64,000 bases of DNA from an uncultured virus (IMG/VR IMGVR_UViG_3300030333_004509) (Duplodnaviria; Heunggongvirae; Uroviricota; Caudoviricetes). Shown here in pieces: positions 26,001 to 57,534 of this stretch. The notes under the pieces were generated by a model. It searched no databases and was not told the origin of the DNA. It saw only the letters and a program-made list of their open reading frames with translations. The position numbers and the translations under genes were made by a program. The stretch lies in the IMG/VR virus record IMGVR_UViG_3300030333_004509, positions 1 to 64,000 of that record. One strand, written 5' to 3'. Position 1 is the first letter of the stretch. The number at the start of each line of letters is the position of its first letter.

Positions 26001-26087
26001 ATTGAGGCCGTCAATGCTAAAGTCAGGGAGCTCAACCGGGTTACTGGAATGGAGCAAGAACAGCTTAGGCTGATAGGTGGTATCTAG
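23022..26087 (+). CDS. Large putative internal virion protein
   Basis: 1021 aa; TAATG coupling; poly-Lys and P/E-rich N-terminus; coiled coils. Confidence 0.7.
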   Translation: MPEETEIPIPGEDVGTSTGKKKKKKKKNTTVGSTETDSGETTKSQRVVIPEDKPEDTGEVESESQAGPPIEDQPEEDTGPTTSAQPPSTYKPKPVDPEPVVKPEVKPSKPIVPAEVKAARKARAAHDTDEARLYGYLGPDVPQTEARLTTDVFRSEEAQNALTPLISGETIDEQRADYYKRLMADVPQPIQDAFGHKGMGLYRMWDDIAYRAAVESGKIDEKTIGVVPHDSMLPGARHSGFQPLNLFDIVLVPQIMADEQTTDSFIGRIDDVAAKMLDPKDLDESGISKTAQEYVEGLSLPELHALDTKILPTMIYNLAGQHYGYDPAVIEAYQAMTGGELPQDVNGRPISAYKTQSSGGGAFGVQELVPREGSPYADDPEQYKSFLLVHDRLRLLVDLETQEREAKSEELRMGADEAEVERRETEVIGARGGVSIAREVLENRGESPPEIGTIEYERTTSNGRISDYQRLLATPYLSHDRYVPVDSMPGTYKGYDQGVVDTYREEARVVGTFASGGKRPTPAPGRVMPATPQKRVSLPGSERIVSVQPLRQAMPRPESGLSLPAMGGPPPPSPFEPGELWSVKKGFIAKVTPTHTASEGVAYLTRSDDNDPRITYATVDPTIKPHPLDVDRKIRQLRDAGEDENGNTVDDAYINRFMARMNTSPDEIDTYRRLIQAEEEHLARLFSREGGEGGTTRNVRIENLKKEIKDLEAERATLTAEREGLEESPEGYSRGTAINRRLKAIAAEIPKAQADVDRLSETRRMRTVSPASGETISMDIERYPQKADESPLEYMRRLAILRVDLKVRIARNKNVIAALREKQTKLESTKAAPTDEAWIEFIGSLEEVMNERAVQARESEKYLTAARAGSAAVGAGRNRPDDPEGTAIEKFGYIQPPRPYAEYIWAESPDIEEIGYPVYWLDDGNEHTHGDARHPIAIRQGLVFNRRLTLTDKEDKYGPITGYWVTIEEDKLINQLLKVRDEQDAEAQKLQEQIEAVNAKVRELNRVTGMEQEQLRLIGGI

Positions 26088-35000: not shown

Positions 35001-38000
35001 CCGAGACTATTGAGCTGACGCGCGAAAGCCTTGAAGCCGAATACGACAAGCTGCAGAACCTGGTGGATTCAAAGAAGCTTGACCCAGAAGAAGCGGTGCT
35101 TCGGATTGTCGATGAAGACGGTAACGCTGTTCCTGTCATGCACGACATGTATGATGGTGGTAAGTCGACTTTCGACCTGAATGATGTAGGTAGTCTCCAA
35201 GTCAGGCTGGAGCGAGAAAGAGCGGAAGCTCTTACCGCCACAATGCCCATGGCTCACACTAAGTCTGCCGCACACGCGGTCAAGGAGTTCAGCCCGATTG
35301 AAGCGCTTCAGTCTCGCCTGGCTACCCCCGGCGCAAAGGCGGGTATCGGTCGAGCCGCACTGTTCACGTTCTTTGGTGGTGATCCCAACAAGGCGCTGAG
35401 ACTGCTACCCCCGATGCAACGCATGGAGATACGGGCGGGATCTCGGTCTGTCGAGCAAGCCATCGGTGAGTGCGTCACGTTGGTCGCCGAGGCGAACCAA
35501 TATGAGAAGGGTGGCTTGGGTAAAGTCGTTAAGTATCTGACGGGTGAGATACTGAACTTCGAGTTCGGTGGTAGATCTGTCATGAGTTCGGGGTGGAACT
35601 CCGCGAGCTCGGTCGCTGACGCAATCCGAGTCTCTGCAACGGAGGCTCTCGAGACAGATCACAAGGCTCTTATGGGAGCTCTGACTGTCTTTATTGAGCG
35701 CACAAAGCCTCACAAGGCAGATGAACGGACCTTCACCGAGATGTTCGACCAGTTTGCTCGTAACGACCCTGATGCGGCACAGCTCTTAGACAAGGCCATG
35801 CATCGCATGTTCAAGGGTAAAGGTAGCTTCCTGTCTGACGTAGGTAATGTGATTCAGATCGGTAAGAATCCCACACCTGAAGAGTACAAGTTGCTCGAAG
35901 CGCTGCTGTACTTCTCGGGCAGCACTAAGAGAAACGGTAAGCTGATCGATGATGCGGGGCTTACGTGGGAGCAGAGAACTACGAAGCTCTTCGACGAAGT
36001 CAACAAGATCTACGGACCTAAGGGTGATATCGTAACGAAGAAGATGGCCTTGGTTATGGCCGGTCACGGCACTGCAGGTAGAGTCTTCCGTAGCTGGACA
36101 GACATGGGCGTGGCTGTCGAAGAAGATGTTGTCGCCGCGTTCAAGAAGATGATGATGGGTGAGGCTATCAGTCCTGAGATCCGACCCAGGGTCATGGATG
36201 TGGTGCGACGCTACGGGTACAACCCGTTCTTCCTCGAATCAAGCATGTTGGATGCTGGCTACCACCTACCACTTCAAGCCCGTAAGAAGCTGAGCGAAGC
36301 TTTGGCTCGCGGGCTGGAGAAAGCTGACCCTCGAGTAGAGAAGTGGGAGAAGCTCGGTAATATACCCGCTTCATTCCAGAAGTTCCTGGGCAGTGAGCAG
36401 AACATGAAGAGCGTGTTCGGTGCCTGGTTCCGGTACATGAAGCTGCGCATGACTCGCGGTGCCGTGATGATTCGGCCACGCTACTTCCTGATGAACACGA
36501 TCGATCACTTCACCCAGATGGGTATGGTAACTGGTATACGTCCCGCTTTGATCTCTACGGTCAGGCTCAGCGCTCAGAATGCCTTGGCTGTTCCAGGAGT
36601 CAATAAAGCTTTGGCTATTCTCGAGAAAGCATCGACCCTCCCTGCAGGCGGCAAGTACCAAATCAAGGTTGAGCAGGCGCGAAAGATTCTGCAGAGTGGT
36701 GGTGACGCAGTTGCAAATGCGCTCGGTAAGATGATGGGTGCGTCTAAGTACAACATCAAGTTGAATGATATTCTCGAGGGCAAGCCAGGCACATTCAAGG
36801 TTACTGACAAGAATGGCTTGATCAAGGTCTACAGCTACCAAGACATCCGGGCCATCATGGTTCAGGAGGGTATCTTCGCGACCTTCGACACGACAGCTCT
36901 GGGCAAGGTCGTGCGAGAGAGCGTAGAGAACCAATGGAGAGGTAGCACTTTTAAGGATGCAAAGACGAAAGCTCGGTACCTGGCGGAAGACCTACTGTTC
37001 AACTCGATTGATGACATCGCTGAAGCTTGGTCAGAGCGTGAGCGTGCCGGTGCCGTGATTACATTGATCGAGATGGGCTATGATCCCAAGACAGCTTCTC
37101 GAATGACCATTGATGCTCTGTACGATTATGCAGGCACTATGACTTCGATAGATCGGCATTGGCTGATGTCGCTTATGTTCCCCTTCTGGGCTTATCAGAA
37201 GAACGCGAACCGGCAAATCTTCAACATGATGTTTAGTCCGAGAGGTGCCTACCGCATGGGCGTGATCCGACGATTCCATGAAGGCTCTACTTACCTCGCA
37301 AGTGAGCTGTACTGGAGCGCAATCGTTGATCCCTACGGTGTCTACTACGACGGCTTAGATGATAACCAGAAGAAGACTTACGACGCTGTCCGTACTCGCA
37401 TCGAGTTCGGTTACGGACCTATCGACGAGCTCTCGGATGAGCATCGTGAACGCATGGAACGTGCGTTTAATGTACAAGACCTTAAAGATCTAAGCGCTGA
37501 GCAAATCAACATCATTGAGAACGGCTACGGCTCTCCAAGTCAGCAGTCTCCCAAGGTACGTACAGCAATCATGAGATTGTTTGCTGGGCATGGTTCAGGT
37601 GCTGTCCGAGTTACGGATGGTCGAATCCTGGATATGTCAGACTTCATGTCGATCTACTCTGGGTACGACTCATCCGGCGCTGACTACTACAACGTGACCG
37701 GTGAAGAGCTACGCACGCCCCTCTCAGGCTACGACCCAGATGCCTGGGTCAAGATGTCAGTCAAGGAAAAGGAGCGACTTATTCTTAACGCTAAGTTGGA
37801 AGAGTCAAAGACAGCTTTCCGTATGGCAACTCTACCTCGACCTCAAGAGCATGAGCTCCCCTCGTATTATCGAGATCGCGCCTTCATCTCCATCCCACCC
37901 ATCTTCGACAAGAATACACAGCAATACCACAAGCTACTTCAGGACACGGGACACGAATCTCCTTGGACAGGTGTATTCCTGCCAGAAAACACAATCCAAG

Positions 38001-38659
38001 GCGGGTTCGGTCACATGGCGAACATGACAGCCTTCTACCTTCTTGCGGGTGAATGGGTGCTCGGATCTAACGGCTTGCACTTGATCGACGACAAGGACGA
38101 AGGCTCGGCTATGCTTGGGTATGCGATGAACAACGCACTCGAGGAAGTCGTAAATGTACGGAATGCGCCGATTGCGGGTGAAGTGCTTGACTGGATCTCA
38201 GACGAGAAGATGCAGTACCCAAGACGGATCTCGGATACTACCGCGAACTTGATTGAATCAAGCGGGATTCTGGGGATGATCCCTGTGTTGCGGACACAAG
38301 AGGTGGCCGAGTGGATGGAGGAAGATGAGCGGCGTGCGGCATTCAAGGAAGGGTGGGTCGCTGCAGAAGAAGCCGAGATGGCTGGAGCTCGAGTTCGCCC
38401 AAGACGTAATTACATTCCGCCAGGTATGATCACGTTCCTCTTTGACAACAGTCCTCTCGGAGAGTTTGACCGCATGATGAAAGCTTGGGAGATGACTCCG
38501 CAAGAAGAGACTATGGAGTTTCAAGGTCAGCTCTACCGCTGGGCACGTACTTTGGCGGGGGCGGATATCCAAGAGATTCGGGGTAGCCGCACTGCATCGC
38601 TTGAAGAACCTTATAGCATGCGCAAGTTTAGAGGCATGCCTGAAGAACCAATGGATTAG
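26087..38659 (+). CDS. Giant polyvalent/ejection protein (JAB-like, ART-like and zincin HExxH motifs)
   Basis: 4190-aa uninterrupted ORF; HNHP...FSRDD; WFHAT...FGPGLYLAEN; IHELGH...EEHFAEAF. Confidence 0.8.
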   Translation: MSDYEDTPEGLPEPEVPKIDDTYGLREEDIKEYMDIAGVSRQKAIRVLAPNLGAQVAQREAKLDIRKQQDEVVDRLDITGLGNKLKGNQGAIEMGLTPRYTDHNDVLDKHAQSVGMSADEYRQELGALNVGYEALVEDIVTRGRPVEHALKMADKRGSLARVDSRTREIEQTGHYLQTKARVLARTDPEAAKELGIEIDPIFVDEESSFGLSGTSEYERRQVVSQPGEYGFQAAQMQAEALVTSNPELGQWVKELSASHVGGDTYITRRATQKLDKWKAANPGYDQKEAEDLEKVFIDQAMEELGIFKTIGWWQMPIFMSSRYRYGDAKDDSFITAMAPQIEIVGLNNKGHVVTRTAGAGQYGIKTVDFLQAGVVGGLATIGTEEDWWSGSKRGIANQRDFLEWSQDLAGHDASTIKKAGYGIAALPFLLLTPDALFGTAGAAKIAGRGGKLVRKGAVTRKHMTSIEDILSGAKGGDIDALTMADIERIQALDKSLMLNDEIAEQMDLLDGQIGAFLGRSNPYTGFTFVKGEPNKGIKLADDLPGNLGGQGINLHPTRRKARAKAQAQELAEREARAKAKGKVEKKGIEIETPKVEIPDLYDYAGHLKRIRTARKAVDDLDVGDFAPRLDADITSESVRITNIISDIADAEVAANFRLKMKGSLDDALKRPGVPARGANTEDAARFWYSDMVEEVRKLPGMEKATDELAAIDRALAAGEITEAEAKAARKPFQAQAAARRQVYNQLESIAKKAQKIADDSPLKRTKQALDRAEEAVKANLESRIAAWYVLHDQLQGGLLFKGRRRVNPLAEGSKLANKIKDFIDLTPDAQNFAGMLQKYFNMSQAEADANARLFDAAAKAWAYQNQRTPHDWWKRTIAGVKSKEDFIERFKNGPPDVTNPPGKGGKVTPDGDGPTPDPTGMVPVVAPHWQGNMNTVAGRASTALPDGYRLEGFGGEALEFPSGIGPKGDRGLMNKLAIRIRNAGVDIDPYRTSKKDLFESINKGLLELSETANGRVVIDELVEEGFFRNIGQRNWKVIGPDGSVVKEVTNSDALDVVAQAVEKLLDDGVMVRHAEDMGGDIRVGPVVYGMSHAAVRAALKDHPREVGVHFIGDQQIFRFGDEFDDKVKYGHDNTAALAKRPDHVAYHNHPDPEGYRNWFSRDDLMFFPFLALREQRVIMADGSVLQLEMLGDAGWNGWNNLSHIGRLFNGDYTTVAEMERGDAVFHAVLRDYSERIDNDVFEAAEAAHRADVNAGKFGPRPEAGPELVEYNKRQNRALFESLSRRYEKLLKEDYGIDARVTVYEGRIPDRRLAPDVEAVSDPRPVAREGELRVKDPIEPLAVKRADDTPQVPVEEEFTSLVKKLGPDGLNALSFKSDDFMRNVITRNQSGTVTSEVVEFIPVDKIGLGRLANLGDWRVTDNAKIEQAKNLLRGFINDYRQKLVDIGAVKKVDNKDRIQYRIDREEDVWDTTWMNYDANVEAAILSDAWLDGPVSILAHTAHDLDRQFAMLSRDIFSPAEVAAIKQELASDPRILDAIELINESTAYKPGRQPRFYREKKEAPTKLSADPQNNEVATFLGTLRASPEPFGEAADNFKQKLLVLKDHASQLGDLLVPYQDKFLGLIADDDNLIQLALVADARRNSGFFKQTSQPGNISDHCRKIATLKWRLRTGDFKGGSIDPAIQEIASDLLPTELDLQRMLADEQAFLRNELDILRGQLQKERHQLVRDLRVLDTIGIINAKNASFDSTIAEAKARLQSPVNSAFEYMELMNMGGPPKTHMYGLRVRDPEKLQEYITSVETKLRDPSLEAEKTAHLLGRRRELKDHLFIQSRWRKMLEEASKRPGSYLEEAVPTLTKTEEFAPPNFPGLDKHFNPRDAERIRNEVAWLQDPENVGMDDGSPVVAGIGLDSGSSVTVMLLDEGYIEIQPTDMLSQLERMERSDAYEYVGVPHLKGFLSPKAETSAPTITEFNMFTADVKHEEISARARDLQGEIARAAHAVRNLASEIRSGITYAGDGKQVYRDYKYGLGRFASLMTDSIRESKHSFVALDNAKNVPISSPALGLGETVLENLARQGVPADTSVHTLVGMLNNRTSLMHNLSPTTREIIERRAFDQDMIRHASAAESHELMVSQVNATPWFHATQSDFNIYDYSLKYSGKHYGNAFGPGLYLAENPELSVVKYMAGAGLGTRTIPDARNQLAAVKVNARNIIDIRGYPEDLANQFDELGMPMEALVLRGGYQPLTQKLLDEATGRTRTRTGATFYRGYMTPTRMSNEGLFNASSEIHLISRAQAKLQSIAEELGLKAADVTDDAQYATLTSDESLMSRLDTDRRTFGAHPSDEAISDIEALAKAGDSEPFPVPGSEPIPGFFYTPAAESWLWREMLMDNAAHIAYDPRFYSRGGAEIIADLSHRDMAYQLDRLRYETSQKFRNRSVSRAPDAWNMLRKMYSGRGKQLRAAESGSDTMRAVQEARQKDLQEWVHQSYETDAGTQRFPELPEYPGDDSVGFTGDPPDTPSEELQLLENFAREVLDAAKEGKLDKYATGERRIFGDIHSEYQPWDVDDHVFGWNILDSIGSIEYNLPTASGQTELPNLRRLARLHKRGRLPPGGLNKFKLNMIQTLEHNGINTLDDLRVYYNMDRTRRADTVFRLKGPDGKQLDKPSSEYLTALVLGGGIAARAPKQADISGLIERCHKFLDARAPTKIDLHTMLMNNNVDGALHFGSMDSNVLILFDPMASKLDNAVEVLVEKGRVFDDDILYHTRRVDDLIEEERAAVEFLDDGRAVIYALGEPDPVSVIHELGHILRRQMSKDDLDGVTAYLNKKLGLEGEDALTHKGNKFVGSKENVRRAEEHFAEAFEAYVARGTAATDIKPAFSRLKVFLGQVVARMTRSNQTIDIDPDVEVFFDKLLKETPDAEPILRRVSGRVQEHMNISGTGSPFPEVSAFEFFSEESRRVGATHIGTKLDADGNVTETIELTRESLEAEYDKLQNLVDSKKLDPEEAVLRIVDEDGNAVPVMHDMYDGGKSTFDLNDVGSLQVRLERERAEALTATMPMAHTKSAAHAVKEFSPIEALQSRLATPGAKAGIGRAALFTFFGGDPNKALRLLPPMQRMEIRAGSRSVEQAIGECVTLVAEANQYEKGGLGKVVKYLTGEILNFEFGGRSVMSSGWNSASSVADAIRVSATEALETDHKALMGALTVFIERTKPHKADERTFTEMFDQFARNDPDAAQLLDKAMHRMFKGKGSFLSDVGNVIQIGKNPTPEEYKLLEALLYFSGSTKRNGKLIDDAGLTWEQRTTKLFDEVNKIYGPKGDIVTKKMALVMAGHGTAGRVFRSWTDMGVAVEEDVVAAFKKMMMGEAISPEIRPRVMDVVRRYGYNPFFLESSMLDAGYHLPLQARKKLSEALARGLEKADPRVEKWEKLGNIPASFQKFLGSEQNMKSVFGAWFRYMKLRMTRGAVMIRPRYFLMNTIDHFTQMGMVTGIRPALISTVRLSAQNALAVPGVNKALAILEKASTLPAGGKYQIKVEQARKILQSGGDAVANALGKMMGASKYNIKLNDILEGKPGTFKVTDKNGLIKVYSYQDIRAIMVQEGIFATFDTTALGKVVRESVENQWRGSTFKDAKTKARYLAEDLLFNSIDDIAEAWSERERAGAVITLIEMGYDPKTASRMTIDALYDYAGTMTSIDRHWLMSLMFPFWAYQKNANRQIFNMMFSPRGAYRMGVIRRFHEGSTYLASELYWSAIVDPYGVYYDGLDDNQKKTYDAVRTRIEFGYGPIDELSDEHRERMERAFNVQDLKDLSAEQINIIENGYGSPSQQSPKVRTAIMRLFAGHGSGAVRVTDGRILDMSDFMSIYSGYDSSGADYYNVTGEELRTPLSGYDPDAWVKMSVKEKERLILNAKLEESKTAFRMATLPRPQEHELPSYYRDRAFISIPPIFDKNTQQYHKLLQDTGHESPWTGVFLPENTIQGGFGHMANMTAFYLLAGEWVLGSNGLHLIDDKDEGSAMLGYAMNNALEEVVNVRNAPIAGEVLDWISDEKMQYPRRISDTTANLIESSGILGMIPVLRTQEVAEWMEEDERRAAFKEGWVAAEEAEMAGARVRPRRNYIPPGMITFLFDNSPLGEFDRMMKAWEMTPQEETMEFQGQLYRWARTLAGADIQEIRGSRTASLEEPYSMRKFRGMPEEPMD

Positions 38660-48066: not shown

Positions 48067-49053
48067 ATGAGTGACGGTAGTACCGCGCATCCATCCGTAA
48101 TGATTTGCTCATACGGTAAACCAAAAAAGCGTAAGACATCTGATGCGATTGCAGCTTTCCCCAGCGCCTTATTTGTAGGTGTGCCCAGTGCGATTACTTT
48201 GGTCGCGCAGAACGAGCTCGGGTTTACACCTGCGGTTCATCCCAGCCCACCTCAGACCCTACCTGAACTGGTTGCTCTACTCGAGCACCTGGGTAGCACC
48301 AACATGGCTGAAGCTTACGGGGCACTCGTCATCGACGATGCCAGCCACATCTGCAAGCGCAGCATGCTTGTCTGGAATGAGGAAGCGCCTTCTGGTCGTA
48401 GCGGTAAGAAGGATCGCTTCTACGCTTACCAGCAGCTGAATCGTTACCTGCTGGAGATGTCCAGCCTTGCTCGTCATCTTGGTGTTCACCTTGTCACAAC
48501 GTGGCATGAGCGCATGCCGGGCAGCAACGCTGACGGACACTTCAGCCCAGGCGGACCCGATGTTCCCTCGCGGAACCAGACGGAGACGATCCCTTCCTGG
48601 TGCGACATCAACGTCCGCGCCATGGTTGACCCCGGATACCCCGACCCTTGGTTCCCCTCTGTCTACTACTGCGATCCTACTGATAGCAACTGGATTACTG
48701 GTGACCGCACAGGTGTGTGTACCCAGAAGACCCCGGGCAACCTAAGAGAGATCTTGCGAGCCAGCGAGTCAGGCTACCAGCTTAGCCGTCTGCCCGGTCT
48801 CGAGTGGCAAGATGAGCTCGCTGACCTGATCGCAACTCAAGTCGCTACTGGCGCAGATGTACGCGCTACGGTACAGAACATCGCGGGCCAGTATCAAGCT
48901 AACCCTTTGCATTTACGCTGGGCATGCCAAGACGGTATTGCTCGCGGAATCTTGCGGATGAATCGGCAGAAAGGTCTGTTTGATTTTTCCTCTACCCAGG
49001 TCGAACAGAAGAAAGAGGGGGCAGCTCTCCCTCCACCTCCCCCGACCGCTTAA
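48067..49053 (+). CDS. Sak4-like (AAA_24) recombination ATPase
   Basis: YGKPKKRKTS (variant Walker A), LVIDD Walker B, T.H, WCD; nuclease-ATPase-SSB synteny. Confidence 0.7.
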   Translation: MSDGSTAHPSVMICSYGKPKKRKTSDAIAAFPSALFVGVPSAITLVAQNELGFTPAVHPSPPQTLPELVALLEHLGSTNMAEAYGALVIDDASHICKRSMLVWNEEAPSGRSGKKDRFYAYQQLNRYLLEMSSLARHLGVHLVTTWHERMPGSNADGHFSPGGPDVPSRNQTETIPSWCDINVRAMVDPGYPDPWFPSVYYCDPTDSNWITGDRTGVCTQKTPGNLREILRASESGYQLSRLPGLEWQDELADLIATQVATGADVRATVQNIAGQYQANPLHLRWACQDGIARGILRMNRQKGLFDFSSTQVEQKKEGAALPPPPPTA

Positions 49054-49088
49054 CCGGACTACAAGTCCACAACAGGAGATAGAACCTC

Positions 49089-49733
49089 ATGACTACTATC
49101 ATGATCCCCGGTTCAGATTTTGAGGGCATCGGAGCTCTCAATGCAGCGCCACCCGACGCAGGCGTCTACGAAGTGAGCATCACTAAGCTCGAGCGTCATC
49201 CCAGCGACAAGCCTGGTGTTCGTCGTGTCCACGTCTTGTTCCCTAACGGGTTCACGATGTTTACCTTTGTGCACTTCGCACATGAGCAGGATTCCAGCGG
49301 CAACTTCGTCCGCATCCCTAACCTGCCCGACAACAAGTTCATTGGCCGCATGAAAGCGATCAAGACGATCCTCTACTCGCTGGGTTACGCCGACGAGCAG
49401 ATCCAGAGTGGTGACATCCACGATGGTTGGTTCATTACAGCCCAGTCTAACAACAAGGGCTTCGTGGACTTTACTCCCGGTCAGCGTGGAGTGCAGGGCA
49501 GCTACAGCAACGTCAACAGCTGGCTGACCAAAGCTCAATACGAGAGCCGGAAGAGCCAGCCTGCTGCAGCTCAGACCAAGGCAAGCCCCGCGGCTGTCAA
49601 GGTGGGCGCGGCTCCTCTGCCCGCAGCCAAGCAGACCATGTCTGCTCCGGCCCCGACCAATGGTGCTGGCGCACCGTCTGTCGGCGCGGCTCTGCCCCCG
49701 CCACCTTCAGTGGCGCAGGGAATCGTGAGCTGA
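49089..49733 (+). CDS. Putative single-stranded DNA-binding protein (DUF669-like OB fold)
   Basis: 'P.AG.YEV.I' start, 'Y.NV..W' end, A/P-rich tail; follows the Sak4-like gene. Confidence 0.6.
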   Translation: MTTIMIPGSDFEGIGALNAAPPDAGVYEVSITKLERHPSDKPGVRRVHVLFPNGFTMFTFVHFAHEQDSSGNFVRIPNLPDNKFIGRMKAIKTILYSLGYADEQIQSGDIHDGWFITAQSNNKGFVDFTPGQRGVQGSYSNVNSWLTKAQYESRKSQPAAAQTKASPAAVKVGAAPLPAAKQTMSAPAPTNGAGAPSVGAALPPPPSVAQGIVS

Positions 49734-49737
49734 GTGA

Positions 49738-49843
49738 TAGACCGTGGCCGGGGGGAGGTTTACCTCTCTTTTCTCCTCCCTCCCGCCATCATTACCGCAC
49801 AGGGAGGCACAGCGGTGGTTGCATCAGGTGTCTCATCCTTTTT
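49738..49843 (+). ncRNA. Structured RNA motif copy 1 (three-way junction plus pseudoknot)
   Basis: P1 GACC/GGUU, variable P2, P3 ACCGC/GCGGU, loop GAGGCAC pairs with GUGUCUC, U-tract. Confidence 0.7.
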
Positions 49844-49919
49844 AGACCGAGGGTACTTCATGCCCTTCGAGCCGAGCAGGGAGGCATGTCGGTGGTCGCA
49901 TAGATGTCTCACTCTTTTT
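49843..49919 (+). ncRNA. Structured RNA motif copy 2
   Basis: P1 GACC/GGUC, P2 GAGGGUA/UGCCCUU, P3 GCCGA/UCGGU, pseudoknot GAGGCAU/AUGUCUC, U-tract. Confidence 0.7.
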
Positions 49920-49941
49920 CTCCAACCCTCAAGTCGGAGAC

Positions 49942-50033
49942 TAGGCCAGACGGAGGTTTTTTCTAGGTCCTCCGAATCGTAACCCGGACAGGGAGGCACA
50001 CCGGGGGCTGTACCAGGTGTCTCATTTTTCTTT
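49942..50033 (+). ncRNA. Structured RNA motif copy 3
   Basis: P1 GGCC/GGCU, P2 CGGAGG/CCUCCG, P3 CCCGG/CCGGG, pseudoknot GAGGCAC/GUGUCUC, U-tract. Confidence 0.7.
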
Positions 50034-50054
50034 ACAACCCTTTAGGGGGAGCAG

Positions 50055-52787
50055 TTGTCACAGTCTCTATCACAGTGCAAAACTCAGCAAGGTGACGCCC
50101 AATGTGATAGCTGCCCGCTCAGGAACGGGGGGCCACTTTCGGAGGGAGAGTGGAAACCGGTGGGACCTGAGCTACACCAAAGAGCGACCGTAATTGCAAT
50201 TGCAGAGTCGCCCGGTCCCGAGGAGGTCGAGAGAGGCCGACCCCTTGTGGGCCGCTCTGGTGGTGAGTGGAACGATGCCCTGCGTGCTGCGGGCAAGACT
50301 CGCCCCGAAGTGGACCTAACCCACGTAATCCTCTGCCGCCCACCAGGACAGTCTTCTGGTGCCTGGGGTCGGATGGAGAAGAAGTTAGACAAGCTAAACA
50401 AGAAGCGAGAGAAAGACGGGCTGGACCCGCTGCCTCACCCGGCAGAGTGCTGTCGCCCTCGACTACTCGCTGAAGTATCAAAGTACGATCACATCATCAC
50501 GCTGGGTAAGACCGCCACTCGAGCTCTGACCGGCTCATCAGGATCCATCCAGGCTATGCGCGGTGGACCACTGTGGGTCGACGAAGACTGGCAGATCACG
50601 ACAGACGATGACGCCAAGCTACGCCGAGTCATGCCGACTCTGCACCCCTCGTTTGTACTGCGCTCACCCAGCTGGCGTAACGTCTTGCACTCTGACATCG
50701 GTAAGGCTTTCCGTTGGTTCGGCGGGGCACTACGCTGGACTGAACCCGACATCCTATGGCGACCTTCACCCGAAGAGCTTGAGGAGTGGCTTAGTCAACC
50801 AGCTCCTTTCTGGGCTTATGACGTGGAGACTGACGGTATCAACGCGCTCGAGTGCGGGTTGCGCACCTTGGCTATCGCCATCCCTGACATGGACGACCAA
50901 GGTCGAGTGGCTGACCCCACCATGGGTCGACAGGTCCACACGAACGCCAGGTCTGTAGGGTTGACATTCATGACTGTGAGTGGGGTCGCATGGTTCGACA
51001 CCGAGGAAGGCGCAGAGATCAAGGAGATCCTTCGACGGGCTTTCACTGATGGGCGTCCCTGGGTCGGACACAATGCCGGGTTCTTCGATCGACTGGTGAT
51101 CGAGAACCACTTTGGTGTGACGCCATACCCCCTCATCGACACGCTCTTCCCCGCACGTTTCCGTGCACCTGACCTGCCCAAAGGTCTCAAGACTGTGGGT
51201 TCGGTACTCACCGACGTAGAGCGCTGGGAGAGTACAGAGAAGGGAACGAAGATCGCGACAGGCAGTGAAGACGACGATGAGCTGTTGCGTTACAACATCA
51301 TTGACGCTGTAGTGAACGCACGTATCGTTCCTCCGCTTATCGTAGCTACTGAGAAAGCAGGCGCATTCCGCCCATGTAACCCAGCGTTTCGTCCATCAGG
51401 TTGGCCCAGCCATAGACCCTGGGATCTCAACGAAGTGGATCACGCCACGCAGGAGATGTGTGTTGAGCTCCACAGGAACGGTATCTGGGTCGACCAGGCT
51501 AAGCGGCTAAGTCTCGAGGCAGAGTATGAGATCAGCGTTCAGCAACGACATAAACGGCTTAATGGTTTTATCGATGGAGTCCCCATCAATCCCGGTAGTG
51601 CTGATCAAATACGCGATCTACTGTATCGTCGTTGGGGCCTGGGCATACCACCTCAGATGGAAGCGAGAGACTTCTACACCGAGACTGGTGCCCCTGGAAC
51701 AGGTGACGCTGTTCTCCGAGGACACTTAGCCAGCGGAAACTTGACGGCACAACAGGAAGAGTTCATACGTGAGCTGAGGTTGTACCGTAGAGAAAAGAAC
51801 AAGATCTTAGGTACGGTGTTGATCCCGATGCGTCGACGAGACATCGACCTCAAGAAAGGCTTGGTCTGGGAAGACGGGCGTGTCCGCAGTAACTGGAACG
51901 CTCACGTCACCAGCGTAGGTAGGCTGTCCAGTAGTGGACCCAACCTCCAGAACATCGGTAACCGAAAGGGGCAGGGCAGGCTGAAGAGTATCTTCGCAGC
52001 ACCACCTGGACGTGCTTACATCGGGGCTGACCTAGACCAGGCTCACCTGCGGATCACAGCCAACTACTGGCAGATACCACGTCTACTCGAGTGCTTCGCG
52101 GAGAAGAAAGACCCGCACAACCTGCTGGCCTATGACGTATTCGGCTCGAAGTTTAAGAACGCTGATGGGTGGGGACCGGAAGGATTCAGCCTCAAGCGTA
52201 AGCCTACAAGCGGCTCAGCTAAAGCGATGCGTGATGTGATGAAGACGTTCCGCTATGCCTCGATCTACTGGGCAGATCCCATGACCGTCTGGCAGGTGCT
52301 CACCTCAACGGAGACAAACGACGGCAAGATGCCGTACCTCAAGTTCGAGACTCGAGAGGTACGCCACTTCCATCGCAAGTGGTTGGAGGCTGAGCCTGAG
52401 TGGATGGATGCGTGGAACCGCATGCTCACGATCTACCGATACCAGAACTATATGGAGGAGCCTGTGCTGGGTAGGCGCAGCGGCGGGCTGAGTGACGGCA
52501 AGAAGAACGAGGTTGTTAACTTCCCGATCCTCGCCGCGGAGAGCTCGCTCATGCGACTGGCTGAGCAGGCTGTCATCGAAGCATTCCCGTTCCAGTTTGA
52601 CGGGCCCGGCACTGGCATGATTCACCAGTGTCACGACAGTATCTGTGTCGAGGTCCCTGATGCAGGAGAAGAGCAGCTCGAGGAATGGCGCTGCATCGTA
52701 GAAGAATGCATGACAATCAAGGTGCCTGGCTGGGAGGTCGACCTGACTTCTGAGGCGGACATCGGACGAACACTAAAGGATGTGTAA
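50055..52787 (+). CDS. polA: Family A DNA polymerase with N-terminal family-4 uracil-DNA glycosylase-like domain and 3'-5' exonuclease
   Basis: UDG: C..C, ESPG..E, CRPP, LG..A, HPS; Exo: DVET, HNA.FD, Y...D; Pol: GRLSS..PNLQN, D..Q..LR, R...K...Y...Y, HD. Confidence 0.92.
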   Translation: MSQSLSQCKTQQGDAQCDSCPLRNGGPLSEGEWKPVGPELHQRATVIAIAESPGPEEVERGRPLVGRSGGEWNDALRAAGKTRPEVDLTHVILCRPPGQSSGAWGRMEKKLDKLNKKREKDGLDPLPHPAECCRPRLLAEVSKYDHIITLGKTATRALTGSSGSIQAMRGGPLWVDEDWQITTDDDAKLRRVMPTLHPSFVLRSPSWRNVLHSDIGKAFRWFGGALRWTEPDILWRPSPEELEEWLSQPAPFWAYDVETDGINALECGLRTLAIAIPDMDDQGRVADPTMGRQVHTNARSVGLTFMTVSGVAWFDTEEGAEIKEILRRAFTDGRPWVGHNAGFFDRLVIENHFGVTPYPLIDTLFPARFRAPDLPKGLKTVGSVLTDVERWESTEKGTKIATGSEDDDELLRYNIIDAVVNARIVPPLIVATEKAGAFRPCNPAFRPSGWPSHRPWDLNEVDHATQEMCVELHRNGIWVDQAKRLSLEAEYEISVQQRHKRLNGFIDGVPINPGSADQIRDLLYRRWGLGIPPQMEARDFYTETGAPGTGDAVLRGHLASGNLTAQQEEFIRELRLYRREKNKILGTVLIPMRRRDIDLKKGLVWEDGRVRSNWNAHVTSVGRLSSSGPNLQNIGNRKGQGRLKSIFAAPPGRAYIGADLDQAHLRITANYWQIPRLLECFAEKKDPHNLLAYDVFGSKFKNADGWGPEGFSLKRKPTSGSAKAMRDVMKTFRYASIYWADPMTVWQVLTSTETNDGKMPYLKFETREVRHFHRKWLEAEPEWMDAWNRMLTIYRYQNYMEEPVLGRRSGGLSDGKKNEVVNFPILAAESSLMRLAEQAVIEAFPFQFDGPGTGMIHQCHDSICVEVPDAGEEQLEEWRCIVEECMTIKVPGWEVDLTSEADIGRTLKDV

Positions 52788-53239
52788 TGAGTACTGCAAG
52801 ATGGTTCCTGGCGCATGACAAGTCGGTTGAGGAAGATCTCATCAACATGTGGGCCAAAGAACTAAAAGAACTGTTGGCTTCCCCCGGCTTTGAAGTCGAA
52901 GTAACTTCAGGTCGAGATGACTACATCGCTCGATCTGCAGCCTTGGGTGGCTGGGCTCGTTGGTGCGGTGATGTCCCGCACGGTCGACGCTACGATGGTG
53001 ATCCCATGTTCCATGGTGTAGTCGTACCCGTCAGTCCTGGTGACATGAAGCCGCTGGTCGGCAAGGCTACCTGTCAGATCGTCGCTGGCTTTATCAGCGA
53101 GATGAAGCACGCCTACACCTGGTGCCCCGCATCTGGTGAGTTTCAACGCATCGAAGATGTTCAAACGACTGACATGGACGACTGGCGTGGCTGGGCTCAA
53201 CTAATACTTGAGGTTGACGCCTCGTCACAATGTGAATAG
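52787..53239 (+). CDS. Hypothetical protein
   Basis: 150 aa; TAATG coupling to the polymerase. Confidence 0.75.
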   Translation: MSTARWFLAHDKSVEEDLINMWAKELKELLASPGFEVEVTSGRDDYIARSAALGGWARWCGDVPHGRRYDGDPMFHGVVVPVSPGDMKPLVGKATCQIVAGFISEMKHAYTWCPASGEFQRIEDVQTTDMDDWRGWAQLILEVDASSQCE

Positions 53240-53242
53240 TCT
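53214..53242 (+). promoter_or_regulatory. Sigma70-like promoter
   Basis: TTGACG-17bp-TAGTCT. Confidence 0.55.
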
Positions 53243-53271
53243 ACCAGTATCCTAAACTCAAGGAGGGATGA

Positions 53272-55026
53272 ATGTCTAAGACACCTTCGCCTGATCCCTA
53301 TGTCAGGCTCATAGAGAGCAACGTAAAGAGTCCCACGGGGGACTTCTGGAAGCTAGAGCTCAGTCCTCGAACGCTGCTCGTTGGCTCAAACACATCACAT
53401 AAGAGCGCGGTTCTGCAGTCAGTAGAGCTGGCATTGACGGGTGCTGCCGATGATATTGTCGGTCGATCTGCTGTCAAGGATGCGGGCTTGCTCATGACTC
53501 TGTCCCCAAGCGACACGCTTGAGACTACAGCTTGTTTCTCGGATGGGTCAGAAGCTTTCTTCCGCGTCAAGAGTGACGGCAAGAAAGTCAGCAAGCCAGA
53601 GCACGCTCACGATCTCGATACCAAGCAGAGCCTACTGCTGCGTCAGGTTCGCTCAGTGCTTGCCTCAGGCACAGATACCTCTCGCCGCGCGTTTCTCCGG
53701 TGGGTAGGTAGAAACCTACAGGAAGAAGACATCCTGGCTTTCGTACCGACAAACCTGCACTCTAAGTATCGCGACTGGGCTGAGCATATCCGCGGAGATG
53801 ACCAGGTAGACACGCTTCTTAAGATCTACGATTACGCAGCCAAGAAGCAGAGAGACTTGGGTCGACAGGCACAGGCGGCTCGCGCTGTGGTGCAGAGTCT
53901 CAGTGAAGATGTTGAGCTGGGTGACAGTGCTCAAGTCGGACATCTTAAAGAGAAGATCAGCAATCACATCTCGTTGATGGCTCACGCCTACACGGGCAGT
54001 CACCTGCCGGAAGGATGGAAGCACGTCGATGTATCTAAGCAGGCAGTGAACTTTGCGATTGAACAGGACCTCGAGTCGTGTCCTCTGTGCGGCAGCAACG
54101 TAGGCAACGAGCACTTTCACCGAGTCCTGGATTACTACCTCAAGGCTTGCGAAGACGTGGATCGAACTGATCAAGCAGCTTACTTGTTTGAGAAGAATAC
54201 GGAGCTTCAAGAGATGCTCAACCAGCTGGCTGATCTGTCGAATAAGCAGGGGCAGCGTAGCTCAATGATGGACACGCAGGCCAAGGTGATCGAGCTTACG
54301 CAAGAAGCTGAGAACTACAAGCTCTACAAGTCACAGCTGTCTGACACTGTACTTCAGCTACTTCGCTCTTCTTTTGTCCAAGACTTCTGTCTGCAAGTTA
54401 GCGAGTACCTACCAAAGAACTGGCGCTTCTCAGTCAGGCTCAACGAGGGTGACCGCCAGGTGTTCCGGGTAGGTCTGTATGACTCCGAGTCTGGGCGTGT
54501 GCGCTGCGCTTTGTCCGGTGCTGAGTGGGCTACAGTCACATCAGCGCTGGCTATGTGCGTGGCCGATGGACTGCCGGAGACTACACCTCGAGTGATTATT
54601 CCTGAGGATCGAGCTTGGGATAAGAAGACCTTGGCGGCTGTTATGCGGAGCTTTAACTCCTTCGATGGTCAGGTCCTGATGGCGAGCACCATCCGACCGC
54701 AGGGTCGCACTCCCAAGGGCTGGACCATTATCGACATGGACCAGTGGCTGGAGGAAGAGATCGAAGGCTCAGCTGAGGCTGCGGATGAGCAAGCAGAGCT
54801 TAGCTCATGTCCCGTAGACACTGAACCTGAGCGACCAGTCTCGAGCAAGGGAGCGAAGATCCTTACCGGTCTTGGCTACGACAAGGAGCAGATCACGCAC
54901 ATGAACGTGTCGACTGCTGCGGCTATCATCAAGCAAGGTTTGTTGGCTGAGTACACTCACATCAGCTCAGACGGCGGTTATGAGTTCACTCAGAGCAGCA
55001 AGCTGATTAAGTTGCCAGAACAATGA
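53272..55026 (+). CDS. Rad50/SbcC-like ABC ATPase with short coiled coil
   Basis: LLVGSNTSHKS Walker A-like, central CPLCG hook, LSGAE signature. Confidence 0.75.
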   Translation: MSKTPSPDPYVRLIESNVKSPTGDFWKLELSPRTLLVGSNTSHKSAVLQSVELALTGAADDIVGRSAVKDAGLLMTLSPSDTLETTACFSDGSEAFFRVKSDGKKVSKPEHAHDLDTKQSLLLRQVRSVLASGTDTSRRAFLRWVGRNLQEEDILAFVPTNLHSKYRDWAEHIRGDDQVDTLLKIYDYAAKKQRDLGRQAQAARAVVQSLSEDVELGDSAQVGHLKEKISNHISLMAHAYTGSHLPEGWKHVDVSKQAVNFAIEQDLESCPLCGSNVGNEHFHRVLDYYLKACEDVDRTDQAAYLFEKNTELQEMLNQLADLSNKQGQRSSMMDTQAKVIELTQEAENYKLYKSQLSDTVLQLLRSSFVQDFCLQVSEYLPKNWRFSVRLNEGDRQVFRVGLYDSESGRVRCALSGAEWATVTSALAMCVADGLPETTPRVIIPEDRAWDKKTLAAVMRSFNSFDGQVLMASTIRPQGRTPKGWTIIDMDQWLEEEIEGSAEAADEQAELSSCPVDTEPERPVSSKGAKILTGLGYDKEQITHMNVSTAAAIIKQGLLAEYTHISSDGGYEFTQSSKLIKLPEQ

Positions 55027-55443: not shown

Positions 55444-57534
55444 ATGCCAGATACGGCGCAAGCCGATGGAGCTCAAGCTGAAAACCCTGAACCCATCTCA
55501 GCAATCGAAGCCCTTGAGAATCTACTAACTGCCGCGAGAGAACAGAACGCTGAAGCTCGCGACTCTGCCTGGTCCCAGATCCAGGACCCTGATGTAATGG
55601 ATGAGCTAGCTCGAGAGTGGCGCACATCCAGCGATCGGATCACCGCACTGATCTCAGCGCTTGAAACAACAAGAGGTCAGGCTCGTCGAGCCCGGACACT
55701 GCGTAACGCAATCAGGCGACTGGCTGAAGAGCGTGCTCGCCAGATGGCTGAGCAGTGGCTCAATGAACTACAAGAGGACATGACCAGGCTACCTACCCTG
55801 GCCGAGGCGCTGAGCCTGGGCGGGCCGCCCGCGGGCGTAGTGGATCCCCTGGTCCTGGCGAACCTGCATGTACCTCGAGGATTCCAGATCGAAGTCTCGG
55901 GAGTCTACCGATTGACTCCTGGGATGGACGGTGACATGCAGCGCACAAAGATCTGTTCCGCTCCGATGTTTATCTCAGGCCGGACCATCGATGTCCTTAC
56001 CGGAGAAGCGAAACGTCAGGTTGTGTGGCGGGGGCCCAGTGGTTGGTGCTGCCGTGTCGTAGACAGGAGAACGATCCTTGACGGCTCACGCATCATGTCC
56101 CTTGCGGATCTCGAGGCCCCGGTAAACTCAATCACAAGCGGACAGGTTATCACTTACCTGGCAGAGTTCGAGTCCGAGAACAGTCACCGCTTCCCGGCAA
56201 TCCGCTCAGCTTCGCGCATGGGCTGGCTCCCGGACGGCTCCTTTATCCTGCCGGACGTTCACTACACGCCGGACGATGAGCCCACCAGGTTCGCCTTGAC
56301 CGCACCTCCCGGACTCGAGCAGCTATCCAAGGGTTGGGGCTCGGCAGGCACCTGGAACGAGTGGTGCAACGGTGTGCGCCAGATCTGTGAGTTCCCGCAC
56401 ATGATGATCTCCATCTATGCCGCGGCAGCTGCCCCGATCCTTACTGTCCTGCGCCTTCCCGGATTCGTCGTAGACTTCAGCGGCGAGACCAGCGGAGGTA
56501 AAACCACAGCTCTTCGTATGGCTGCGTCTGTGTGGGGTCGGCCCGCAGACAGTTATCCTACGGCGATGTATAGCTGGGACGCCACCAAGGTCTGGATCGA
56601 GCGCACCACCGGCTACCTCCACAACCTGCCCTTGATTCTCGATGAGACCAAGCGCGTGCGTCATCCCCGGATGATTCGAGATGTGATCTATGACTTCTGC
56701 CAGGGGCAGGGTCGAGGCCGCGGATCGGTCGACGGCACCAGGTCCATGGCATCCTGGCGCTCTGTCCTGATCAGCTCCGGCGAAGGTGCAGCCACCAGCT
56801 TCAGCCAAGATGCCGGAACTCGAGCTCGAGTCCTTAGCCTCAAAGGTAAGCCGTTGGGTAACAACGCAGAGGAAGGCGGCAAGATCAGCGAGAACATACA
56901 GGTGATTCTTTCGGATAACTACGGACACCTGGGCCGGAGGCTCGCTCATTACCTGGTCGCTAACACCGCAAACCATGACCAGATTCGGCAGGTCTTCAAG
57001 GAAGCTCGGGACCGGTACTCGAACATTGCACAGACTGCGGTAGCTCGTAGACACGCAGCTCACCTGGCTGTTCTCGAAGTAACCGCACAGATCGTTCATC
57101 AGCTTGACGTGCCTCGTCCGCTCGAGGATCCCTTCGCTCGACTGATCGAGGCCGCGGCGGACGCAGGCATCGACGCCGACCGACCGTTCGCTGCGATGCA
57201 GGACATCGTGAGCTGGTGCGCAGCCAATCGCACACGGTTCTGGGGCCGACATGAGAGCACCTCCTTTGGCCCACGCACACCCGGAAACGGTTGGGCTGGG
57301 GCCTGGTCAGACGAGGAGGGCTGGGAGTTCATCGCGATAACCACACTAACGCTTCGTCAGATTCTGGATGAGCTGGGCCACCATCCTGACGAGGTGATCA
57401 CCCGGTGGGACGAGAGAGGCTGGCTCTTCAGGGGACGAGGGCGAAACCGAACCAAGGTCGTGCGCGTGGATGGCTCCCCGATCCGCTGCTACTGCATCGA
57501 CCGGAGAGCTGCTGACCTGGCGCTGGATGACTGA
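55444..57534 (+). CDS. DUF927 / Cch-SaPI-Rep-type replicative helicase
   Basis: R.GW, G.W..W, GETSGGKTT, LPLILDE, G.GR.R, SSGE, NYGH.G motifs. Confidence 0.85.
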   Translation: MPDTAQADGAQAENPEPISAIEALENLLTAAREQNAEARDSAWSQIQDPDVMDELAREWRTSSDRITALISALETTRGQARRARTLRNAIRRLAEERARQMAEQWLNELQEDMTRLPTLAEALSLGGPPAGVVDPLVLANLHVPRGFQIEVSGVYRLTPGMDGDMQRTKICSAPMFISGRTIDVLTGEAKRQVVWRGPSGWCCRVVDRRTILDGSRIMSLADLEAPVNSITSGQVITYLAEFESENSHRFPAIRSASRMGWLPDGSFILPDVHYTPDDEPTRFALTAPPGLEQLSKGWGSAGTWNEWCNGVRQICEFPHMMISIYAAAAAPILTVLRLPGFVVDFSGETSGGKTTALRMAASVWGRPADSYPTAMYSWDATKVWIERTTGYLHNLPLILDETKRVRHPRMIRDVIYDFCQGQGRGRGSVDGTRSMASWRSVLISSGEGAATSFSQDAGTRARVLSLKGKPLGNNAEEGGKISENIQVILSDNYGHLGRRLAHYLVANTANHDQIRQVFKEARDRYSNIAQTAVARRHAAHLAVLEVTAQIVHQLDVPRPLEDPFARLIEAAADAGIDADRPFAAMQDIVSWCAANRTRFWGRHESTSFGPRTPGNGWAGAWSDEEGWEFIAITTLTLRQILDELGHHPDEVITRWDERGWLFRGRGRNRTKVVRVDGSPIRCYCIDRRAADLALDD

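Follow-up and report, generated by a model that had tools for sequence, protein, structure and literature searches.

In the genome of an uncultured virus of the class Caudoviricetes (IMG/VR record IMGVR_UViG_3300030333_004509), three tandem RNA units can be read in the sequence at positions 49738-50033 of the + strand, between the gene of a protein resembling single-stranded DNA-binding proteins (SSB) and a DNA polymerase gene. All coordinates refer to the window, that is, the whole stretch of 64,000 nucleotides (nt) analysed here, which spans positions 1-64,000 of the 70,080-bp virus record. In every unit, an initial UA is followed by a 4-bp helix (P1), a variable hairpin (P2) and a 5-bp helix (P3) that closes a 13-nt loop of the form RCAGGGAGGCAYR. 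In the 3' part of each unit, P3 and then P1 are completed by their second strands, and a 6-7-nt linker with a terminal AG leads to a 7-nt strand (GUGUCUC or AUGUCUC) complementary to the GAGGCAY letters of the loop, after which come an A and a pyrimidine-rich tract. An initial annotation had described three units with these helices, the 13-nt loop and a pseudoknot between the loop and the downstream strand, and all of these features are present letter for letter.

Unit 1 (49738-49843, +) starts with UA and contains P1 at 49740-43/49817-20 (GACC/GGUU), the P2 hairpin at 49744-49790 and P3 at 49794-98/49812-16, which closes the loop ACAGGGAGGCACA (49799-811); the linker GCAUCAG (49821-27), the pseudoknot strand GUGUCUC (49828-34), an A at 49835 and the tract UCCUUUUU complete it. 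Unit 2 (49843-49921, +), again beginning with UA, has P1 at 49845-48/49894-97 (GACC/GGUC), P2 at 49849-49867, P3 at 49871-75/49889-93 with the loop GCAGGGAGGCAUG (49876-88), the linker GCAUAG (49898-903), the pseudoknot strand AUGUCUC (49904-10), an A at 49911 and the tract CUCUUUUUCU. The third unit (49942-50033, +) likewise opens with UA and comprises P1 at 49944-47/50006-09 (GGCC/GGCU), P2 at 49948-49980, P3 at 49983-87/50001-05, the loop ACAGGGAGGCACA (49988-50000), the linker GUACCAG (50010-16), the pseudoknot strand GUGUCUC (50017-23), an A at 50024 and the tract UUUUUCUUU. With covariance model R1, units 1, 2 and 3 score 60.5 bits (E 4.4e-16), 63.3 bits (E 6.2e-17) and 59.8 bits (E 7.1e-16), respectively.

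The pattern CAGGGAGGCA-N14-26-TGTCTCA matches three times in the window versus none in 100 shuffles, and the two conserved words give no further match in the 70,080-bp virus record beyond the three units. Under constrained folding P2 forms a hairpin in 3/3 units, as had been claimed. Units 2 and 3 adopt a three-way junction as their minimum-energy fold; that of unit 1 extends P3 at the expense of P1. The nested folding energy of the 321-nt region is unexceptional (z = +0.46 on the + strand and -0.51 on the - strand), and thermodynamics alone would therefore not have flagged the region. According to the sequence and the list of open reading frames (ORFs), the last unit leads into a segment (50024-50057, +) formed by a G-poor spacer, the Shine-Dalgarno (SD) sequence AGGGGGAG at 50044-51 and a TTG start codon at 50055-57, which places the start of the polymerase gene ~31 nt past the last pseudoknot strand (ending at 50023). 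A search for tRNA and tmRNA genes in the window found none. The sequencing runs that contain the DNA of the window are labelled as marine/seawater or synthetic metagenomes, with no RNA run among them.

The gene upstream of the units (49089-49733, +) encodes a 214-amino-acid (aa) protein with no Pfam or PHROG match, and its 14 homologues are all unnamed. Its AlphaFold (AF2) model (mean pLDDT 70.7) displays an OB fold and a disordered C-terminal tail, and the best Foldseek matches of this model are to PrgE of pCF10 (E 1.4e-4, TM(target) 0.59-0.61), which we take to be an OB-fold SSB-like protein. Labelling the gene as SSB seems reasonable on the grounds of this predicted similarity of fold. The downstream gene (50055-52787, +) encodes a 910-aa fusion of a uracil-DNA-glycosylase (UDG)-like domain, a 3'-5' exonuclease and a family-A DNA polymerase, as judged from Pfam matches to UDG (E 8.9e-14), DNA_pol_A (E 6.7e-32) and DNA_pol_A_exo1 (E 3.3e-4, below the cut-off). 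The identities first proposed for both neighbours agree with these results. The UDG-like domain is joined to the N-terminus of the polymerase, and the fusion, which has a CxxC...CPL motif near its start, is kept in relatives. Other window genes upstream encode a helicase, a PD-(D/E)XK nuclease and an AAA_24 protein. Elsewhere in the window, a 4190-aa ORF without Pfam match (26087-38659, +) lies near ORFs of 1410 aa (with a peptidoglycan-binding domain) and 1021 aa, which suggests giant virion or injected proteins, and a 696-aa protein (55444-57534, +) combines DUF927 with a Cch-type HTH_56 domain, presumably the mark of a primase/helicase-like replication initiator.

The units of the window belong to a wider family. 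A pattern scan of IMG/VR gave 41 loci, 19 of which have a complementary stem closing the loop, the other 22 being chance matches; a tighter pattern found 60 loci in metagenomes, ~54 of them with the stem, and none in 596 Gb of prokaryote genomes, where divergent copies could be missed by an exact pattern. A covariance model built from 20 long-form cores produced 121 matches in 71 sources. Within any one locus all matches lie on the same strand, and several loci contain 2-5 copies spaced 250-320 nt apart. Altogether, ~95 distinct copies were collected from marine viral and metagenome contigs, and all motif-bearing contigs are uncultured. Most genomes have a single copy; tandem copies occur in the window and at the loci L117, L089 and L060. 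Weak model matches in coding sequence (G006:19458 and L131:1055) were discarded as chance, as were pattern matches that lack P3 (L062, L066/L098, L073 and L075); L064 is doubtful, and the copies L096/L099 are uncertain, with a P3 of only 3 bp inside an open frame. A covariance-model search combined with a table of flanking genes had been put forward at the outset as a check, and it indeed recovered homologues in which both helices covary and the intercistronic placement recurs.

Comparison of these copies reduces the motif to a core of ~37 nt, an H-type pseudoknot composed of a 5-bp hairpin, the loop RCAGG-GAGGCAY-R, the linker A(N)YAG, the strand RUGYCUC, an A and a G-poor tract. The loop word CAGGGAGG is invariant among the aligned copies. 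The third loop of the knot may be as short as 4 nt, contain a hairpin, or pair upstream of an inserted hairpin, which is the P1/P2 arrangement of the window. The three-way junction, initially regarded as the motif itself, thus turns out to be an optional elaboration, since P1 and P2 are missing from most copies.

The P3 and pseudoknot helices are supported by compensatory changes. In alignment A3 (82 distinct rows), 98.5% of 891 cells are paired and 9 of 12 pairs have changed on both sides, namely 5/5 pairs of P3 and 4/7 of the pseudoknot; no shuffle out of 500 was as good, and slid registers drop to 30-57% paired. The pseudoknot variants include A-U to C-G (8 rows), G-C to A-U and A-U to G-C. 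The primary search pattern had fixed most pseudoknot letters, and their invariance is partly a matter of ascertainment. For this reason a second alignment, A5 (19 distinct rows), was drawn by homology to the upstream protein followed by a model scan. Here 100% of 209 cells are paired and 7 of 12 pairs have changed on both sides, with G-C to A-U in four distinct rows; both alignments were fitted to a model that carries P3. Pairing kept despite divergence of the stems, first noted for the three units, is thus seen among the homologues as well. The argument that G-U pairs favour an RNA on the + strand fared less evenly. It holds for the G-U pairs of P3; the internal G-U of the pseudoknot in the window is a G-C in 16/17 A5 rows, and strand specificity therefore rests mainly on P3. 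The SD-like letters of the loop are paired within the knot in 99.8-100% of the cells of both alignments.

It was considered whether the region might encode protein. The frame of the SSB-like gene remains open for 82 codons past its TGA (49734-49982, +), through units 1 and 2 and into unit 3. Chance is the favoured explanation of this frame, given that relatives differ in unit number and that their extensions are short (median 16.5 in-frame codons, many of 0-3). Coding by stop-codon readthrough was also rejected, as the upstream stop codons keep no fixed frame with respect to the loop, the 90 cases being split 44/23/23 among the three frames. Neither of the two window ORFs that cross the units, one of 82 aa (+ strand) and one of 79 aa (- strand), has a Pfam match at E up to 1, and a mini-ORF of five sense codons (AUG...UAG) found in some units, and missing from units 1 and 3 and from the short forms, is regarded as a by-product.

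The absence of any resemblance to a known riboswitch or ribozyme, as first noted, is borne out by Rfam. At gathering thresholds, release 15 gave no match anywhere in the window; relaxing the limit to E up to 10 for positions 49600-50200 brought up only three chance-level rows (16.4, 12.6 and 7.9 bits versus cut-offs of 95.5, 49.5 and 40), and at E up to 0.1 eight homologous loci gave none. Among cultured phages, blastn with the 81-nt motif region yielded chance matches only, blastn with window positions 49000-53300 yielded no match, and the covariance model found nothing in the whole genomes of Microcystis phage Mel-JY01 and Flavobacterium phage immuto, the nearest isolates by SSB. Literature searches with the loop word gave unrelated papers only among the matches listed, and topic terms likewise gave nothing on the motif. 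The available text of PMC10690425 describes an IMG/VR-based catalogue of more than 10,000 candidate viral RNAs. The loop word is absent from the searchable part of its supplementary text, a part that does not extend to the alignment files and table 4, so that a prior listing there is possible, and Hc1, FKBP, CSD and cold are all missing from its table of downstream genes at up to 25 bp. We regard the motif as a new RNA family of a known general kind, i.e., a phage mRNA pseudoknot element, which that catalogue could hold.

A new small self-cleaving ribozyme, or a dedicated processing site that cuts the polycistronic RNA, would fit an element that is strictly intergenic, phage-only and small, with many invariant unpaired letters and variable peripheral helices, and it would also fit the tandem copies and the tRNA genes that adjoin the motif in two lineages. 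However, there is no Rfam ribozyme match even at E up to 10, and the ~26 conserved positions exceed those of a typical ribozyme. To our knowledge, the architecture is unlike pistol, twister and HDV-like folds. Cleavage by the motif itself is accordingly very unlikely.

The relatives of the window phage (~54-73 kb), in which an SSB-like gene precedes the UDG-polymerase gene, reveal a highly plastic junction. The motif stands right after the SSB-like gene in 23 of the 80 loci with a homologue of the upstream protein, and in 0/36 among the most distant of them. The variants range from a 4-nt gap without RNA element, through a 13-14-bp hairpin with a U tract, this hairpin plus a knot, and one short or long knot, to two knots (L117), three knots (the window) and a knot plus a tRNA gene. 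Two complete relatives have no copy (G007 and G008) and two have one (G002 and G003). Within a phage family the motif is, hence, dispensable. Among 17 junction variants inspected by eye, 13 have 16-21 nt from knot to start. The distance from stop codon to knot varies from ~6 to ~85 nt in this family, and the extra hairpin lies upstream of the knot, not between knot and start; the arrangement is the same at L005, where a hairpin and a long gap precede the knot and 23 nt come after it.

This hairpin constitutes a second conserved RNA-like element. Its 13-14-bp stem is variable, its 9-nt loop A-N-GAGGUCC is kept, and a U-rich tract usually follows, giving it the shape of a terminator. It is found just after the SSB-like gene in L122-L124, L127, L128, L131, L144 and L152, and 5' of the knot in L126, L129, L130, L134, L138 and L140. 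The loop of this hairpin has a possible pairing partner, GGACCUC, further downstream in L127, L128 and L152, and Rfam gave no match at the four loci searched for it (L122, L126, L127 and L131). At L007:1300-1500(-), L014:330-530(-) and L031:1260-1420(-), the knot (or tRNA) is separated from the UDG-polymerase gene by a further conserved non-coding stretch of ~155 nt, which comprises a long hairpin with the initial letters GGGUCACCACC and a closing helix of 12 bp (GGAGGCGGUGGG / CCCCCGCCGUCUCC) with U5 behind it.

These tracts and hairpins bear on the possibility of a transcription attenuator. The loop strand would pair with the emerging RUGYCUC, and the resulting helix, one base before a U-rich tract, would release some polymerases, so that transcripts of the polymerase gene become scarcer relative to those of the SSB gene. 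Behind the knot, a U-rich tract is present in each of the three window units and in about half of the homologues, relatives with a terminator-like hairpin have a canonical hairpin plus U6 at the same junction, and multiple copies would be additive. Nevertheless, the other half of the homologues have CA-rich tracts, and in units 1 and 2 the U run begins 4 nt beyond the helix. As regards the G+C-rich short-loop hairpin plus U run of an intrinsic terminator, a terminator scan called no unit, its sole flag being a sub-hairpin within P2 of unit 1. Moreover, in arrays where each small gene of an operon has a knot in front, the distal genes would be starved. Attenuation appears improbable on this balance.

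A second group of motif-bearing contigs belongs to large phages with a gp32-like SSB (phrog_1192), whose nearest isolates share 31-32% identity. In these phages the motif (M) occupies nearly every gap of operon-like runs, of the type gp32-M-67-aa protein-M-Csp-M-FKBP-M-Hc1-M-UvsX, and is found neither ahead of the first gene nor behind the last, nor where genes overlap. The motif stays in front of three downstream gene families (the 67-aa protein, the cold-shock protein Csp and a 153-aa protein) whose upstream neighbours differ. In the two nearest isolates, the SSB gene is directly followed by the recombinase (RecA) gene, with no cassettes, and the motif is absent genome-wide. The small-gene runs between SSB and UvsX encode a cold-shock protein, an FKBP isomerase, a chlamydial-type histone-like Hc1 and lipoprotein-like ORFs, together with the conserved 67-aa protein, which has the C-terminus ..AEKLYxFVQKK; they were seen at L016, L017, L024, L037, L049-L058, L061, L065, L079, L088, L093-L095, L102 and L104.

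Small varied genes each flanked by the motif, and the same families with differing neighbours, might suggest a DNA-level site for cassette exchange, with a role like that of integron attC or of the PeSLs of T4-type phages, and the lack of cassettes in cultured relatives, where SSB is directly followed by RecA, would agree with this. The available text of PMC4122927 describes PeSLs as short conserved intergenic repeats that flank small variable genes within plastic regions and probably serve in cassette exchange. A PeSL, however, is a terminator stem-loop plus a sigma-70-type early promoter, whereas the motif has a covarying pseudoknot and no consistent U tract, and the 8-39 nt that separate it from the start leave no space for a promoter; a scan of 49000-50400 in the window found 0 sigma-70-like sites. 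In addition, the helices covary with strand-specific G-U pairs, and the stems lack conserved core-site words. Of all the explanations considered this is the least probable; gene exchange is more likely a by-product of the repeated sequence.

Across both groups, the copies lie between cistrons, often immediately behind an SSB gene of one of two unrelated families. The geometry was counted over 79 distinct contexts. A downstream start lies within 150 nt in 71/79, and less than 40 nt from the knot in 63/79 (quartiles 23/30/34, median 30). An SD-like word precedes the start in 61 of the 71; the SD proper stands 8-25 nt beyond the knot and outside it. The spacer (933 nt in total) contains 4% G, 42% A, 28% C and 26% U. 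In short forms, the stop codon is mostly 4-10 nt ahead of the hairpin. In summary, the motif is a strand-specific, covarying pseudoknot RNA, intercistronic, followed by a G-poor tract and confined to phage-like marine contigs, and we infer that it acts in cis and post-transcriptionally, probably tuning the expression of adjacent genes.

Several riboswitch classes typically form compact H-type knots whose loop letters are invariant, and tandem aptamers are known, so that the knot could in principle bind a small molecule and alter downstream expression. Nonetheless, H-type riboswitches such as preQ1 and SAM-II have the SD or a terminator strand within the knot and so differ from the motif, whose real SD lies outside the knot. 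Its downstream genes are unrelated and share no common pathway, no terminator is found within the 8-39 nt before the start, and Rfam gives no match. The probability of a riboswitch is accordingly very small indeed.

The reading that we rank first, as a tentative one, is that of a leader module, in which the knot and the single-stranded tract would decouple the downstream cistron from its upstream neighbour and set its translation. The stable knot would act as a structural boundary just past the upstream stop codon, breaking the translational and structural coupling to the highly expressed upstream SSB gene. The unstructured tract would then offer a standby (landing) site for the small ribosomal subunit or protein S1, ahead of the real SD and start, and the downstream gene, here the polymerase, would be translated at a level of its own. 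The tripling in the window could be a local duplication that strengthens or tunes the effect. We rank it first because the motif is placed close to start codons and its spacer is depleted in G, and also on account of the invariant SD-like letters and the precedent of tisB. The near-invariant loop and strand letters, GGGAGG among them, recur across unrelated phages and point to a shared host partner, for instance the ribosome. The available text of PMC7708055 proposes for the +42 mRNA of E. coli tisB a standby site in which a pseudoknot beside a single-stranded region binds 30S and S1 and allows downstream initiation. The two systems have no sequence relation and also differ in layout: the tisB site lies ~100 nt from a sequestered ribosome-binding site in an mRNA with a processed 5' end, whereas the motif stands 8-39 nt from apparently open sites in a polycistronic RNA. 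ACA motifs upstream of the SD raise translation, according to the accessible part of PMC3879156.

Several observations weigh against this interpretation. In 16/79 contexts there is no start within 40 nt, and the spread of 8-39 nt between knot and start leaves no strict docking geometry evident. Units 1 and 2 of the window and unit 1 of L117 precede another unit rather than a gene. Between SSB-like and polymerase genes, tRNA-Asn lies 5 nt past the knot at L031:1421-1495(-) and tRNA-Met 25 nt past it at L009:1561-1635(+), and a structured element of ~155 nt intervenes between knot and polymerase gene in L007, L014 and L031. L089 has a tandem pair of units with a terminator-like hairpin and a convergent gene behind them. 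The gp32-type SSB genes always have the motif downstream, before seven different genes, and linkage to the upstream gene is therefore equally visible. Finally, since the SD-like loop letters are paired, they would be unavailable to 16S rRNA unless the knot opens.

An RNA-decay barrier, or processing punctuation, accounts better than the leader module for the exceptions: tandem units, tRNA neighbours, end-of-unit copies and the exchange with a terminator-like hairpin. According to this alternative, which we consider nearly as likely as the leader module, the knot would be a mechanically stable block to exoribonucleases after a cut in the adjoining tract or at a tRNA; the upstream (SSB) segment would outlive the downstream segment, and tandem copies would be additive. 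Such a barrier needs no adjacent start, which suits tandem units, tRNA genes 5-25 nt downstream that would make a 3' end at the knot, and copies at the end of transcription units. The long hairpin plus U tract at the same junction in relatives also has the shape of a 3' stabiliser, the upstream genes are often those of abundant proteins (SSB, Csp, Hc1), and the invariant loop letters could fit a triplex-like tertiary fold as in nuclease-resistant viral RNAs. On the other hand, plain hairpins would suffice as barriers, the SD-like primary sequence is left unexplained, and the nested folding energy is unexceptional. Furthermore, the L126-type and L005 loci already have a terminator-like hairpin ahead of the knot, which would make the knot redundant and absent from terminated transcripts.

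The comparison class here is that of the exoribonuclease-resistant RNAs (xrRNAs). Their topology, a three-way junction in which the loop of P3 pairs downstream, is similar to the long form of the motif, and a small plant-virus class, a hairpin whose loop pairs 3', is similar to its short form. This likeness is one of topology and may not extend to a ring around the 5' strand. Unlike the xrRNAs of flaviviruses and plant viruses (PMC11702639, in its available part), the motif has no Rfam xrRNA match, lacks the junction in most copies and would face bacterial host enzymes. It is conceivable, though doubtful, that the motif represents a phage-only device working on a conserved host machine, either a 30S/S1-docking intercistronic pseudoknot, as a prokaryotic counterpart to the ribosome-recruiting elements of viruses, or the first bacteriophage class of exoribonuclease-resistant RNA; in both cases unrelated marine phages would employ it as a portable module for setting expression gene by gene.

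The association with SSB genes raises a further possibility, modelled on the operator of T4 gene 32. The knot would nucleate cooperative binding of SSB (or a cold-shock protein) along the G-poor tract, and the bound protein would cover the next ribosome-binding site and repress the downstream gene when SSB is in excess. The layout of knot, unstructured tract and ribosome-binding site is that of the gene 32 operator, with a spacer of only 4% G, the first copy lies directly after SSB genes of two unrelated families (PrgE-like OB-fold and gp32-like phrog_1192), and the downstream polymerase and UvsX work with SSB. The operator of T4, T2 and RB69, as described in the accessible sections of PMC3014915, shares with the motif an H-type pseudoknot, an unstructured tract that runs into the ribosome-binding site, and the SSB association. 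Unlike the motif, however, the T4 knot lies upstream of gene 32 and regulates gene 32 itself, and its tract is made of UUAAA repeats instead of CA/U-rich sequence. All SSB-linked copies of the motif are downstream of the SSB gene; no model match was found in the leader of an SSB gene, either in gp32-like loci with 95-740 nt of upstream sequence or ahead of the window gene at 49089-49733. No conserved words in common were noticed with the T2 pseudoknot in a comparison made without alignment. Two unrelated SSB families would, moreover, need to recognise one invariant knot. An SSB gene is upstream in only ~15 of 107 contexts, and many regulated genes would encode lipoproteins, FKBP and the like. 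The window phage has no homologue of Csp, Hc1 or the 67-aa protein, a tblastn search with 17 motif-neighbour proteins having given one marginal match. An SSB operator is consequently an unlikely explanation.

The same distribution makes it unlikely that the motif is an RNA partner of the adjacent polymerase, another early suggestion, since most copies adjoin other genes, e.g., Csp, FKBP, Hc1, UvsX, PhoH and tRNAs. A decoy or sponge, in which several copies titrate a host RNA-binding regulator, or an anti-defence RNA, is in our view still less probable than a ribozyme. The invariant loop word CAGGGAGG fits the consensus CANGGANG of the CsrA/RsmE site, and tandem copies exist in the window, L117, L089 and L060; however, the GGA is base-paired in the conserved knot (its G and A in 99.8-100% of cells), and most genomes have a single copy. 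ToxI antitoxins, the model initially proposed for a decoy, consist of tandem ~36-nt units with a pseudoknot fold. The units of the motif, by comparison, vary in sequence and mostly occur singly, they have neither an endoribonuclease toxin gene nor a repeat array beside them, and the 596 Gb of prokaryote genomes gave 0 matches, so that a ToxI-like function is unsupported.

The earlier proposal that the element sets the SSB:polymerase ratio has gained indirect support. The ratio might be set under the leader module, the decay barrier or the SSB operator alike, and the junction series favours it, as relatives have a terminator-like hairpin, a 4-nt junction or one to three units at the same place. 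The motif is small, and its compensatory changes together with this natural series of 0, 1, 2 and 3 copies at one junction make it directly testable; the module could also serve as an insulator or stabiliser part. The available portion of a T4 review (PMC3014915) describes the gene 32 knot as possibly the sole viral pseudoknot in translational autoregulation. If the leader module is correct, the motif would be a well-supported addition to the very short list of regulatory phage mRNA pseudoknots. At least two unrelated lineages of uncultured marine phages would then share a portable 37-nt module that sets expression between neighbouring genes, and that appears above all where the stoichiometric SSB gives way to the catalytic proteins it works with, the polymerase and the recombinase.

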